Of a stretch of DNA of 64,000 bases, positions 3,366-46,352 are shown one piece after another. How positions within the stretch are numbered: position 1 is the stretch's first letter; each line of letters begins with the position of its first letter. The position numbers and the translations under genes are program-made. The stretch comes from Eledone cirrhosa (taxonomy: Eukaryota): positions 12,648,001 through 12,712,000 of the forward strand of contig OZ024765.1 of the NCBI GenBank assembly GCA_964016885.1, given 5' to 3'. The notes beneath the pieces are model-generated. The model did no database searches and had not been told where the DNA came from. It saw nothing but the letters and a program-made list of their open reading frames with translations.

Positions 3366-3423
3366 ATACCTGATGATATCACCGGATTCACACGGAACCC
3401 GGTCATTGAGATGATCATAGTAT
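3366..3423 (+). ncRNA. Minimal hammerhead ribozyme motif (GAAA->GAGA variant)
   Basis: atac CTGATGA tatcaccgg..ccggtcatt GAGA tgatca TA gtat; palindromic ATGATCAT stem III. Confidence 0.6.
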
Positions 3424-3782
3424 AATAAACCTTTCAAGGATATACACCAGTCCAGCCCCCTGTTACTTTATTTATTTATATATATATATATATACATACA
3501 TACATATATATATATATATATATATATATATATATATATATATATGTGTGTGTGTGTGTATGTGTATATATATATATATATGTGTATGTGTATAAATATA
3601 TATATATATATATATATATATATATATATATATATATATGTATATGTATATATATATGTGTGTACGTACATATATATATATATGTGTGTCTGTACATATA
3701 TATATATATATGTGTCTGTACATATATATATATATATGTATATATATATATATATATATATATATATATATATATATATATC

Positions 3783-4180
3783 GACCTTACCCAATTACAC
3801 CTCTCAAAGGCGATGACACACGACCGTGACCTCTGGCGTCACGCAGTAATACAGAGTACCCGACCTCCCATGGGTACAAGCTGAAGCATATAGACAATAT
3901 GCCCCCACACCCTCCCACTGCAAGATGGTCGTGGAGGTGCCACGGCAAAAAAGGACCCAGCCCACACTGTAAAGTGGACGTGTAGGCGCCACGAAAAAGG
4001 ACCCAGCACTCACTGTAAATGAGGTTGGTGTTAGGAAGGGCATCCAACTGTAGAAATCAAGCCAGAATCAGTTCCTGTATGAGCAAGGCATGGTCAGCCG
4101 ACCAGACACTGCCCACAACAGGACAACCCGTCTAACCCATGCTAGCGTAGAAGAACGGACGTAAAACGGTGATGATGATA
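3783..4180 (+). mobile_element. RTE 3' fragment plus SINE-like repeat with (GAT)n tail
   Basis: Encodes [12 protein letters not shown] (RTE C-terminal motif); tail like 1-72. Confidence 0.65.
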
Positions 4181-4839
4181 TATATCATCTTTTCATTTTC
4201 AAAAAAAATGAAGAAATGATATATATATATATATATATATATATATATATATATATATATATATATATATATATATATGCATTTTCTCGTATGTGAGTGT
4301 ATATCATTAACTTGAAACTCTATACTCTGTCTGTAGGTGTTGCGGTGAATGTTGAATTGTCTCAGTGAGGTTAAAGTCCTCATTGTTGCTCTAAATACAG
4401 AACAGGTTATTATAATTTGAATAAGACTGGCCACCTCCATCTGACCCCCCCAGTTACTTCTACTATACATTAGTATATTAAATTTCTTTAGACATAACTC
4501 TGCAGTAAAATTCAGATAAATACGATACCTGGTGAAAACCTGACAAAATTTTCCAGCACATTGATAGAAGAAATGCCACCACACCCACTGAATATTTTTA
4601 TTTTTGGCATTTTAAAAAGAGATATATCGTTTATTAATAGATTATTAATAGATTGTAAAATGGAGGGGTAGAGAAGGCCCTTGAGTCTAGTAAGACATCC
4701 TTTCTAGTGCTGGTGGCACAAATAAAAGCACCCAGTCCATGCTGTAAAGTGGCGCTGGTGTTAGGAAGGGCATCCAACCAGTGTATCAATGCCAAAACGC
4801 TTATCAGTACAGCAACAAATAGGAACAACAACAAAATAT

Positions 4840-5040
4840 GAAGACGTCGAAGATGTCGTAGAGGTAGACCACGAAAAACGTGGGCAGAGGTGGTGAGAAC
4901 AGACCGCAGATCGCCGAAGCTCATGGTGGAGATGACGAAGGACCGTGACAAGTGGAGAGATGCGGAATAAGACCCGTCCCACCCTTGCAAGCAGGGCAAA
5001 GTGGACGTAAAATGATGATGATGATGATGATGATGATGAT
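4840..5040 (+). mobile_element. RTE LINE 3' end fragment
   Basis: RGRPRKTW..DRDKWR C-terminal motif, (gat)n tail; same family as 5590-6063. Confidence 0.75.
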
Positions 5041-5589
5041 ATAGTATGGTATGGTATGGTCCCATAACTTCTGATAGAGTCGTAGAGGCACTGTATTGAC
5101 ATACATCATTTCTAAGGCATTTTTTAAAACTTGGTGGAACCCATCTCCTCTCCAGGCCTGAATACAGCAGATTTCTTCCAGAGAAGGATAGAGAAAGGAA
5201 GTGAGAAAGATATATATAGAGGAAGGATCGACCCCCAGTATTTGACTGGTACGTTTTTTATCGACCATGAATGGATGAAAGGCAAAGTTGACCTCAGCAG
5301 GATTGAACTCAGAGAGGAGAGAGCTGAAATGAATACTACAAAGCATTCTATCCTGCTGGCTTAGTTAGGGTCTAGCTGTCGAAACAGCCAGAGCTCAGCC
5401 GTCGGGGTCCTGACTCTTTTCCTATAAATAATAGATTAAAGTTTACGCAAAGAATCGCTGCTTTCACCATTAATGGGATCTTCTGTTATTTTGATAAATA
5501 TTTGTTCTATGGTTTCTATATATTTGATATATATATTATCCTTATCGAGCCCTCTTCGGATTTTAGTCTTCACATTTATTATTATTACA

Positions 5590-6063
5590 TGTGATGCGCA
5601 TGGAGGATGACCGATGGATGAAGAGGTACCAAGAAATGCCAGTAGAAGGAAGACGTAGTAGAGGAAGACCACGAAAAACATGAGCGGAGGTGGTGAGAGC
5701 AGACCTCAGATCGCTGAAGCTCACAGAGGAGATGACGAAGGACCGTGACAAGTGGAGAGATGCTGTGCTGAATAGGACCCGTCCCACCCTTGCAAAAGGT
5801 TTGATTGGACTTGTGATGCGCTTGGAGGATGACCGATGGGTGAAGAAGTGCCAAGAAATGCCAGTAGAAGGAAGACGTAGTAGAGGTAGACCACGAAAAA
5901 CATGAGCGGAGGTGGTGAGGGCAGACCTCAGATCGCTGAAGCTCACAGAGGAGATGACGAAGGACCGTGACAACTGGAGAGATGCTGTACTGAATAGGAC
6001 CCGTCCCACCTTTGCAAGCAGGGAAAAGCAGACGTAAAATGATGATGATGATGATGATGATGA
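5590..6063 (+). mobile_element. RTE LINE 3' end, tandemly duplicated
   Basis: Two copies of VMRLEDDRWVKKCQEMPVEGRRSRGRPRKT..MTKDRDKWRDAVLNRTRP; (gat)n tail; another fragment at 45710-45815 (-). Confidence 0.8.
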
Positions 6064-6074
6064 TATATATATAT

Positions 6075-6351
6075 CAGTGGCGAAGGGTAACCTGGAAGGC
6101 AGGGCATGCAGTCCAATCGCCATGGCGGAAAGTGGGGCTGTGCAGCCTTATCCCCCCCCCCCCCCAATTCTCTCTAAATGACCCTCCCGGTCAAAGCCGC
6201 ATCTAGTGTTATCTAGTGTGTATGTGTGTGTTATCTTTTTATCTGTCTACGATTTAGTAAGCAGCCAAAATTCTGCTTGCTTCAACCGATGCAATTGATC
6301 AACACAAGATTCTATAACGCATGCGTTGCATGCACGGACCCTTCGCCCCTG
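6075..6351. mobile_element. hAT-like MITE (277 bp)
   Basis: TIRs cagtggcgaagggt / acccttcgcccctg; atatatat on both sides (possible 8-bp TSD). Confidence 0.7.
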
Positions 6352-43783: not shown

Positions 43784-44195
43784 CAATATATAAACAGTTT
43801 TATAAATAATTTTGACGTACCATAAATATAAGCGACCATTAAGGTAGGAAGCTGGCTTGGTATATCTACTCCAAAAACTTGTCGAGTGCTTTATATCGGT
43901 TATAAAATATTTACTTGTTGTAACCCAACAATTTTATTTAAATAGAACTTTTGCATATATATATATATATATATATATATATATATATATATATATATAT
44001 ATAATGTACAGTTGCACACGGATCGGTGAAACTGAAATCGGGACTTTGAAGAAAACATGGGTACATGTTTGTCTATTATTTCCTCATATTTTGTAATTAT
44101 GTATATATATATATATATATATATATATATATATATATATATATATATATATATATATATATATATATATATACATATATATATATATATATATA

Positions 44196-44510
44196 TAATA
44201 AAATACGTCCCTCATCAGTGATTTGCCGAAGATCATAGATATTTCATTGCATTAAAAATCATATATCTCACTTCGGTGCAATAATAACCAAAATAAGTTA
44301 TTAGGACAATTAAAACGCGTAAAGCGAGTGAGACGGGAGAACAACAATGCTATCTTTTCTGTTGTTCTCCCGTCTCACTCGCTTTACGCGTTTTAATTGT
44401 CCTAATAACTTATTTTGGTTATTATTGCACCGAAGTGAGATATATGATTTTTAATGCAATGAAATATCTATGATCTTCGGCAAATCACTGATGAGGGACG
44501 TATTTTATTA
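44196..44510. repeat. Perfect fold-back, ~150-bp arms
   Basis: 44196-44346 / 44360-44510; CTGATGA near arm ends but no complete hammerhead. Confidence 0.85.
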
Positions 44511-44638
44511 CATGTTACCATGTGCTACCTGCAGTATTTTTCTCTATATTTTAATATATATATATATATATATATATATATATATATATATATAATATAT
44601 AAGATATAAGATCAAAAGATGGTTAAAAGAGTTCCATG

Positions 44639-44707
44639 TATTTTATTATGCGCATTTCAAAAACAAATATCATCATGCGATAATATTTGTTTTCATCAGA
44701 TAAAATA
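44639..44707 (-). ncRNA. Minimal hammerhead ribozyme
   Basis: tattttat CTGATGA aaacaaatattatc gcat gatgatatttgttttt GAAA tgcgca TA ataaaata; inverted partial copy 44768-44825. Confidence 0.75.
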
Positions 44708-46074
44708 GGAAGACATGATATGAAGGTTAAAAAACACTTGTGAATCGTGCAGTTTTGAATCAACATATGAAATGCGCATAATAAAATACATGGAACTCTT
44801 TTAACCATCTTTTGATCTTATATATTATGTATACTCCAGTCCTACAAACTGTAGAGTGCTTCTTATCCGATATCTGCATTGCTTTATTGTACTACAATAA
44901 AACTCACCTCCTACATATATATATATATATATAGAACATTGGAAGGTAATATCCGTAGTCGTAGAACACTCAGTCCATGGGACGAGTTAGGTAGAAATGG
45001 TAACACAACAGTTAGTTCACCATCCCGAGAACAATTGTTTCACCTTAACGGGTGGTCGTGACCAGCAAAGCTGAGAATCCGCTAAGGTGAAACAATTGTT
45101 CTCGGGATGTTGTGTTACCACTTATATATATATATATATATATATATATATATATATATATATATATATATATATATATATATATATATATATATATATA
45201 TATATATATATATATATATATATATATATAACGAAGGAGGTGTGGTAAGGAACCAGATGGACCATAACGCACCAGGGTACTCAATACTTAGGGTAGTAGA
45301 GTGGGTAATAGGAAAAAGTTTAACGCCGACGGCAGAGCTCAAGCCGTTTCGACGGCTATTTCTGGACTAAATTAGAATTTTTAGCCTGGTAAATAAATAT
45401 CCGAACTTTTCAAGGGGTAATTCCTTATATGGGAAGATTGTAGTTGTCAAAAGGATTGGTCAAAATTTCTTTCATGGCAGTGGGCGGGAGGTGGGTGGCT
45501 GAACTTGCCTGTAGAACAATGAGGGAGTGGGTGCAACCGGTCAAGCGTTGAAAGTGAATTCTATACAGCAAATTCTAAGTAGTGTGTATGAAATTAGGCT
45601 AGTAAGGAAGGCGGCGACAAAGGGTTCTGGAGGAATTAGAGGGTGCGACGTTATAGAATAGGTTAATAAATTGAGATTAAAAGGTAATGAATAAATAAAA
45701 AAAAAGGGATGGGACGGGTCCTATTCAGCACAGCATCTCTCCACTTGTCACGGTCCTTCGTCATCTCTTCGGTGAGTTTCAGCGATCTGAGGTCTGCTCT
45801 CACCACCACCGCCCAATATATTTATATATATATATATATATATATATATATATATATATATATATATATATATATATATATATATATAAGCAAACAGTTA
45901 TTTAATTTGTTGGTTATTCAACAAATTTATTTATAACAGATTCGAAGCACTCTACAGATTTTTTTTGGAGTATAATATCAATGATATTAATAAATGGAAA
46001 CCATATTTATAAAACCATATTTATTTTATTATATATATTTCAAGAGTAAGTCAACATTTATAAAACAAATTTTG

Positions 46075-46135
46075 TATTTTATCTGATGAGAGCGTACCAA
46101 CATGTTGGTACCCTTGAAATATATATAATAAAATA
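46075..46135 (+). ncRNA. Minimal hammerhead ribozyme, C.C-mismatch class
   Basis: tattttat CTGATGA gagcgtacca acatgt tggtaccctt GAAA tatata TA ataaaata; decayed copy ~48950-49010. Confidence 0.85.
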
Positions 46136-46281
46136 AATATGGTTTTATAAATATAGTTTCCATTTATTAATATCACACACACACACACACACACACACAT
46201 ATATATATATATATATATATATATATATATATATATATATATATATATATAAGATCAAAAGATGGTTAAAAGAGTTCCATG

Positions 46282-46352
46282 TATTTTATTATGCGCATTT
46301 CAAAAACAAATATCATCATGCAATAACATTTGTGTTTTCATCAGATAAAATA
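46282..46352 (-). ncRNA. Minimal hammerhead ribozyme (homolog of 44639-44707)
   Basis: CTGATGA aaacacaaatgttatt gcat gatgatatttgttttt GAAA tgcgca TA; 8-bp stem I. Confidence 0.8.

Follow-up and report, generated by a model that had tools for sequence, protein, structure and literature searches.

The window analysed here is the whole stretch of 64,000 nucleotides (64 kb) from Eledone cirrhosa (contig OZ024765.1, positions 12,648,001 to 12,712,000), AT-rich animal DNA that is dense in microsatellites and in which a motif scan found 17 hammerhead ribozyme motifs, several of them with short stems. An original prediction, made from the letters, had described seven of these motifs as a hammerhead subclass with an invariant pyrimidine mismatch at the fourth pair of stem II. 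Judged from their sequence, the motifs belong to the type I hammerheads and sit at the 3′ ends of elements from a clade of Penelope-like retrotransposons (PLEs) of the Hydra type, the Hydra placement being based on motif tests, and the rule that this clade conserves is an unpaired pyrimidine, nearly always C, at position 10.4, opposite C, U or A and not G. The features on which the argument turns are listed below; stem II pairs are numbered from the base after CUGANGA, and pair 4 is 10.4·11.4.

3366 to 3423, plus strand: type I hammerhead, TGATCA family; C3380·C3404 at pair 4, U·U at pair 1.
23966 to 24026, minus strand: type I hammerhead, GCTCAG/TATGTA family; C24010·C23987 at pair 4, predicted cleavage 3′ of 23972.
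26647 to 26701, plus strand: type I hammerhead, GGTCAC/TATATA family; C26662·C26681 at pair 4, predicted cleavage after 26696.
43718 to 43783, minus strand: type I hammerhead, AGGCAT/TATGTA family; C43765·C43741 at pair 4, predicted cleavage 3′ of 43726.
46075 to 46135, plus strand: type I hammerhead, GAGCGT/AAGCG family, with TATATA; C46093·C46112 at pair 4, predicted cleavage after 46127.
46282 to 46352, minus strand: type I hammerhead, TGCGCA family; C46334·U46305 at pair 4.
44639 to 44707, minus strand: second copy of the TGCGCA family, decayed; 2-nt deletion in the 5′ strand of stem II, predicted fold register-shifted.
54146 to 54221, plus strand: further class member with TATGTA; C54161·U54201 at pair 4, right arm of a diverging pair.
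43109 to 43186, plus strand: hammerhead of a different Hydra lineage with the 8-nt palindrome CTGTACAG and a GUU triplet; U·C (43123·43165) at pair 4.
40904 to 40967, minus strand: counter-example with the 7-nt loop III CCACTGG; long, fully paired stem II, A-U at pair 4.
62840 to 62900, plus strand: counter-example of the same CCACTGG family; long, fully paired stem II, A-U at pair 4.

A re-scan recovered the seven motifs of the original prediction at their places, with C·C at pair 4 in five of them, C·U at 46282 and U·C at 43109. The type I core (C3-U4-G5-A6-N7-G8-A9, G12-A13-A14-A15.1, U16.1-H17) was complete in six of the seven; in the copy at 3366, which is followed by (TA)n, GAGA replaces GAAA (A14G), so that this copy is probably dead, while GAAA is present in the TGATCA-family copies among the matches listed. 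Stems I and II covary and stem I is open, which is the type I layout. The AUA triplet with a 6-nt (near-)palindrome, which had been described for most motifs, was confirmed for six and does not extend to 43109. The two long-stem hammerheads without mismatch (40904 to 40967 and 62840 to 62900) had been passed over, and the left arm partner of the 54146 motif, decayed and with its CUGAUGA at 53964 on the minus strand, has C·C at pair 4. In an Rfam scan of the window no hammerhead family appeared among the best 150 of 376 matches, and these 150 were microsatellite or hairpin noise.

As an unbiased sample we took 79 random 10-kb stretches (790 kb) of the 3.0-Gb genome, with the reversed sequence as control, and found 63 hammerheads against 0 in the control. 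This density, about one hammerhead per 12.5 kb, extrapolates to the order of 240,000 per genome; the count given for the axolotl in PMC7229834 is 126,247. The class was defined blind to pair 4, by a loop III of 6 nt together with at least 20 nt of stem II insert, and in 35 of its 37 random-sample members pair 4 was a pyrimidine-pyrimidine mismatch (C·C 24, C·U 10, U·C 1), only 2 being paired there. Positions 1–3 and 5–10 were paired in 30–36 of the same 37 (81–97%), and the neighbouring pairs do covary as had been proposed. The seven long stems with a loop III of 7–8 nt in the random sample were all paired at pair 4.

The enrichment holds genome-wide: the TATRTA-UA pattern gave 79,613 matches (control 127), 71,295 of them with C·C at pair 4 (control 1). 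Other T...A palindromes gave 35,052 matches (control 149), longer stem II inserts 5,189 (control 302) and C...G palindromes 4,139 (control 2,209), and class members number more than 100,000 copies in the genome. At the fetched loci, 181 class copies comprised 173 with two pyrimidines at pair 4, 4 paired and 4 with C·A or A·C. Among the 27 stem II haplotypes seen in at least two copies, none was paired at position 4 and the 5′ base was C in all, while pairs 2, 3, 5, 6, 7 and 9 were formed in 24–27 of them, with three or four pair types each (pair 3 as G-C, U-A or A-U; pair 6 as C-G, U-A or G-C). Pair 1 is weak in these haplotypes (A-U 14, G·U 6, U·U 5, other 2). The stems II of the class measure about 8–15 bp or longer. 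The loop III palindromes are almost all alternating pyrimidine-purine sequences (TATATA, TATGTA, TACGTA, TGCGCA, CATATG, CATGTG and TGTACA, the exception being TGATCA), and the stem III of a dimer would therefore be an 8-bp alternating helix.

To describe what is conserved at pair 4, 13 groups were defined by hand, in a set that includes loci chosen on purpose for their C·A and C-G copies. The majority state was a mismatch in all 13 (C·C in 8, C·U in 2, C·A in 2, U·C in 1); a purine at 10.4 was the majority in none of them, whereas 11.4 could be C, U or A, and all four bases occurred across the groups at the free core position N7. Genome-wide, a C facing a purine at pair 4 gave 3,281 matches (control 49), and the best 100 of these, sorted by eye, contained about 61 copies of one C·A subfamily, about 6 of a second, and about 12 C-G copies scattered over several families; the large, expanded C·A subfamily has its own open reading frame (ORF) inside the mismatch clade. 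The wording of an invariant pyrimidine pair is therefore wrong, and the constant feature is an unpaired 10.4. A purine facing a pyrimidine gave 1,148 matches (control 24), the best 100 of which were scattered G-C and A·C point mutants plus a few indel copies from many families. Watson-Crick repairs are thus present only at the background of point mutations. In the old CATATG family all 14 copies carry U·C or U·U at pair 4. The contrast between a 10.4 that is a purine in no group majority and a free 11.4 points to a base-specific reading of 10.4.

A second regularity lies at the start of stem I, where pairs 1.1–1.3, the first three bases after the cleavage site, read purine-pyrimidine-purine (R-Y-R) in all 13 groups, and in 32 of 33 clusters of the class against 21 of 52 outgroup motifs. 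The mismatch itself has a predicted cost of 5.5–6.7 kcal/mol relative to a Watson-Crick pair in the five window stems. Two other constraints were considered and dropped: a coding-frame constraint is ruled out, the stem II inserts being 20–61 nt long, without a common frame and within the 3′ untranslated region (UTR), and selection on the antisense or cDNA strand is disfavoured by the excess of G·U over A·C in the sense stems (15 against 5). The contigs of four runs from four organisms that cover the TGCGCA family list no variant at either mismatch base, a result of little weight because the family is near-identical and the depth thin. In a look-up of RNA runs none was listed as containing these sequences, which has no bearing on expression.

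The carrier was recognised from the surroundings of the hammerheads. Identical hammerheads often face outward in pairs 0.1–4 kb apart, and such diverging same-family pairs accounted for 19 of the 63 random-sample hammerheads; this is the inverted layout of Penelope-like insertions. In longer copies an ORF with a reverse transcriptase (RT) and a C-terminal endonuclease lies 0.9–1.9 kb upstream on the same strand as the hammerhead, and a (TA)n or (CA)n tract stands closely behind the ribozyme, its start being 91–107 nt after CUGA in seven window class copies (searched from +75) and (AT)n being met about 135 nt past the cleavage site at the locus L150. The TGCGCA family is linked to P0121, an intact ORF of 797 aa in which we recognised by eye DKT, a CxCX5C linker, no CCHH, and CxxC and CxH around a conserved E and N; its N-terminal motif is RWT, and RWK in the homolog P0003, as in the description of the Hydra clade. 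The partial text of Craig et al. (2021, PMC8557442) gives the CxCX5C linker, DKT, the lack of CCHH and (TA)n insertion as marks of this clade, and a length generally below 3 kb as a tendency rather than a diagnostic; the carrier exceeds that tendency, L150 having a 2.4-kb ORF and a 3′ UTR of about 1.25 kb. The Neptune clade was dropped, since its CX2-5CxxC linker and CCHH motif are not present in P0121. A Pfam search with two carrier ORFs returned no significant match, and the RT and GIY-YIG domains were assigned from motifs and homology, an Argonauta protein being among the best homologs. Further ORF links are those of the TGATCA family (L137), of the AGGCAT/TATGTA family (L070–L075 and L157), of an AAGCGC copy related to the 46075 motif (L188) and, by a single 134-aa ORF on which its clade placement depends (L500), of the GGTCAC/TATATA family; for the GCTCAG/TATGTA family a link was looked for among the fetched loci and none was found.

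Outside this genome, 78 related metagenome loci (27–38% best-segment identity) mostly carry a hammerhead (70 matches, control 0), and that of one of them (L254) exactly matches the row of Penelope-1_NV in File S2 of PMC8557442; since the trees held Hydra-like rows only, this identity is the tie to the published Hydra clade. No relative of the carrier ORF was found in the viral contigs searched, and the hammerhead pattern, which matched at least 120 stretches there, gave among the 80 scanned 4 that pass a loose motif test and none with a continuous stem II.

The ten ORFs securely linked to mismatch hammerheads form one clade in a 34-row tree (IQ-TREE 100/98), and with the C·A and GGTCAC links added the 11 rows again form one clade (100/99, 30-row tree); the rows of these trees were thinned, to 9 and 6 of the 49 metagenome proteins, and several are short endonuclease fragments. 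An earlier 52-row FastTree tree gave the same clade except for L185, and the hammerhead-ORF links of L185 and L464 were rejected as separate insertions. The different stem II sequences on which the original prediction had dwelt are real, but the five window examples, all 3′ ends of one Hydra-type PLE clade, are relatives rather than independent inventions. The deep lineages of the clade share 44–53% protein identity, and of 21 pairs of 3′ UTRs only one, from sister GGAC subfamilies, could be aligned at length, three others giving matches of at most 48 nt. A pyrimidine mismatch at pair 4 was absent from the hammerheads of the metagenome relatives (0 of 24 with long stems, 0 of 52 distinct ones in total), as was any internal pair-4 mismatch, by eye, from the 26 Hydra rows of File S2 of PMC8557442. 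With the carriers in one clade, the lineages so divergent and their 3′ UTRs no longer alignable, the mismatch was in all likelihood inherited once and kept by selection. The genome sample, the haplotypes, the trees and the searches for exceptions thus support, at the level of sequence, a mismatch under selection and a definable structural subclass.

The motif at 43109, by contrast, has to leave the class. In 19 copies of its family pair 4 toggles between U·C (8), U-A (8), U·U (2) and U·G (1), and its ORF falls outside the mismatch clade in the tree, so that it is a look-alike. This CTGTACAG family (window 43109 to 43186; L288–L307) gave 500 matches, often as direct tandems of about 526 bp that are retrozyme-like; a Hydra endonuclease lies 0.7–0.9 kb upstream at three loci (overlap-free or partly overlapping), and two subfamilies differ by a paired/mismatched switch at pairs 3–4.

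What the unpaired C10.4 does can be approached from the way these ribozymes should work. The isolated stem III segment of the 6-nt class is predicted to be unfolded, with a homoduplex of −2.2 to −10.5 kcal/mol, and since loop III cannot close as a monomer, dimer pairing is needed: by analogy with known PLE hammerheads, the palindromes of two copies in a tandem transcript would join to make a stem III of 8 bp, and the dimer would cleave after AUA or, in some cases, after AUC, GUA or GUC. Our best guess, given that no RNA partner was found, is that the open C10.4 serves as a recognition handle for the element's own RT-endonuclease, a reading that we consider tentative though plausible; among the docking, metal and protein sites named in the original prediction, a protein site would fit best. 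The clade's protein would read C10.4 together with the R-Y-R start of stem I, the second signature of the clade, and in doing so could help the ribozyme to fold or be loaded on its own RNA at the 3′ end; a lineage in which pair 4 closes would not become a new master copy. Such a handle would explain why the base at 10.4 is specific while the one opposite is free, and why the mark is confined to one RT clade. A precedent is the hammerhead of the Anolis Poseidon PLE, which according to the accessible part of PMC11167929 cleaves only with the element's protein. A more far-reaching and rather doubtful extension is that C10.4 and R-Y-R form a private RNA identity mark and the hammerhead a protein-gated switch that ties self-cleavage to the capture of the correct template, which may have aided the rise to more than 100,000 copies.

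Several observations weigh against selection for an open C10.4 or against its use as a handle. The CATATG family, with U10.4 in its 14 copies, makes the conserved base a pyrimidine and not strictly C. In several inverted pairs, L500 among them, both arms have a G-C or C-G in place of the mismatch, so that a mismatch-free RNA was apparently insertable at least once, unless the arms were homogenised later. The CATATG family and five more groups have no ORF link, and their membership of the clade therefore rests on hammerhead likeness; about five deep lineages count as independent, all from one genome. In the Anolis element, the only region to which protein binding was mapped is the first 172 nt of the ORF, and insertion is described as not requiring cleavage by the ribozyme (PMC11167929, in part). 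Finally, because sister Hydra proteins work with fully paired stems, any handle must be a novelty of the clade.

An RNA tertiary or metal-ion site, in which the internal loop of stem II would dock on stem I or bind Mg2+ in place of the contact between loops 1 and 2, seems unlikely to us, even though the geometry is suggestive: in the canonical metazoan hammerheads described in PMC4209133 the docking loop sits on a helix II of 4 bp, which puts pair 4 at about docking height, docking in CChMVd(−) is presumed to go through an internal loop of domain II (PMC2632901), and near neutral pH a C·C mismatch is able to form a protonated wobble (PMC12714568), as far as the consulted parts of these sources go. 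The R-Y-R start of stem I, so much more constant than in the outgroup, would fit docking as well. No partner was found for it: no conserved base occurs within 30 nt on either side of stem I, no offset in that range having G in more than 5 of the 13 groups, and no other candidate was seen, so that nothing was found in favour of the stem I–stem II docking role put forward in the original prediction. Among 33 clusters position 1.7 varies (U 20, A 9, C 3, G 1), no partner covaries, pairing in stem I falls off past pair 1.4–1.5, the 3′ A of loop 2 known from the docking motif occurs only in the two C·A groups, and relatives with perfect stems II of 10–11 bp manage without a mismatch.

Alternatively, the mismatch could be a brake or hinge that isolates three often weak core-side pairs and slows cleavage or eases read-through by the reverse transcriptase soon after its start, with no partner at all; we give this only a minor chance. 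It would be in keeping with the predicted energy penalty, with the weakness of pair 1, with the use of four different mismatches and with the slowness reported for PLE hammerheads in the text available of PMC4209133. Against it stands the fixed position, at pair 4 and not at 2, 3 or 5. A·C or A·A is expected to destabilise the stem about as much as C·A. Nevertheless, no group has a purine at 10.4, and A·C copies were only scattered mutants among the matches listed. A neutral heirloom, arisen once in the ancestor of the clade and then merely copied, is largely refuted and very improbable, for although all ORF-linked carriers fall in one clade, copy numbers reflect few masters, transitions connect C·C, C·U and U·Y and repaired copies occupy both arms of some insertions, the 3′ UTRs and proteins have diverged as described, adjacent pairs underwent double transversion swaps (pair 3 as A-U, U-A and G-C), loops and N7 are free, and yet 10.4 stayed C, and never paired, in all five linked deep lineages.

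Some other families deserve mention. A Hydra family outside the mismatch clade (L032:2-2182, plus strand), known from at least 146 near-identical copies and having an open frame of 830 aa, is very young; a canonical hammerhead was absent from the 4.8 kb scanned downstream, where the family possibly has a very long 3′ UTR or a variant motif. Copies of the GGTCAC family (26647 to 26701; L464, L078, L027, L086, L087, L465) in many cases start about 122 nt before the core; those with this common start run for about 360 nt, several with a short mirror-image head, and this may reflect a fixed inversion point or a short non-autonomous unit. Other long-stem hammerheads, with GC-rich palindromes of 8–9 nt, are paired at position 4 (L512:5328 and L111:2115, both plus strand).

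In the window, short-stem hammerheads of other PLE families lie at 31107 to 31277, 10902 to 10944, 41999 to 42034 and 25172 to 25214; their types are a diverging GTAC pair, CGCG, a CG minimal type and a GAAC motif resembling the GGTCAC family. Long perfect inverted repeats at 26975 to 27081 and 30704 to 30796, with arms of about 50 and 45 bp, gave false miRNA matches and are perhaps mirror-image heads of retroelement insertions. Minisatellites occupy 17612 to 18392 (95-nt period), 52394 to 53128 (123 nt) and 11424 to 11973 (23 nt), the 95-nt unit containing CTGATGA on the minus strand without a hammerhead fold. ORF fragments of non-LTR (long terminal repeat) retrotransposons (RT, C-terminal; by eye) were seen at 22333 to 22794, 38070 to 38873 and 12900 to 13374 on the plus strand and at 5563 to 6147 on the minus strand.

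PLE hammerheads and the Hydra clade themselves are already known, and why PLEs keep these ribozymes is an open question, since they are slow, the one tested example depends on a protein, and cutting was dispensable for insertion in vitro. One selected unpaired base makes it possible to ask, by changing a single nucleotide, whether catalysis or recognition is what the ribozyme is tuned for, on the basis of a saturated divergence, a clade with an intact protein and sister hammerheads without the mark, and it does so in an animal genome with a hammerhead density near 1 per 12 kb.

The closest known systems are the Hydra-clade PLEs of PMC8557442, cited here from part of the paper, with which the elements share the single ORF of RT and C-terminal endonuclease, DKT, CxCX5C, the lack of CCHH, (TA)n insertion, and a sense type I hammerhead near the 3′ end whose loop III is palindromic and whose pair 10.1–11.1 is often U·U or G·U. 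The hammerheads published there have fully paired stems II of 3–8 bp and loops III of 7–8 nt; the mismatch clade differs in its longer stems II with the pair-4 mismatch, its 6-nt loop III, its R-Y-R stem I start, its 3′ UTRs of 0.9–1.9 kb and its copy number. With the minimal, dimeric PLE hammerheads of Cervera and de la Peña (2014, PMC4209133, seen in part) it shares the site in the pLTR, the larger helix II and short helix I, the palindromic helix III that requires a dimer, the opposite-strand pairs, there 100–700 bp apart, and the many covarying families. That work's minimal consensus, with one additional base following A9 and a conserved G10.1-C11.1, does not describe the mismatch clade, which has neither; a bulge in helix II is noted there for the D. 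virilis PLE hammerhead, and the portion seen describes no conserved 1×1 mismatch at pair 4. That PLE hammerheads cut slowly and as dimers is stated in the same paper and in a review (PMC6765202, likewise in part). The Anolis Poseidon element, the model for the handle because its hammerhead activity depends on the element's protein, belongs to another clade, its ORF starts inside stem II, and no stem II mismatch is mentioned in the available text of PMC11167929. The CChMVd(−) viroid hammerhead (PMC2632901, in part) resembles ours in its extended domain II with an internal loop and a presumed tertiary contact, but its loop is multi-nucleotide, with a conserved 3′ A that meets a hairpin loop 1, whereas the mismatch clade has a 1×1 mismatch, a type I layout and no conserved partner. 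The canonical contact between a loop 1 U and the 3′ A of loop 2, made on a helix II of 4 bp, is absent here, where helix II extends beyond pair 4. U·U at pair 1 is familiar from the excerpts of PMC7229834 and PMC3088659; a conserved pair-4 mismatch, or these cephalopod-type families, found no description in a non-exhaustive survey of partly available hammerhead and PLE literature (including bioRxiv 10.64898/2026.07.22.740005 and PMC12714568). Set beside these systems, both ribozyme and element are of known kinds, and the mismatch makes a real, selected variant that is specific to the clade.

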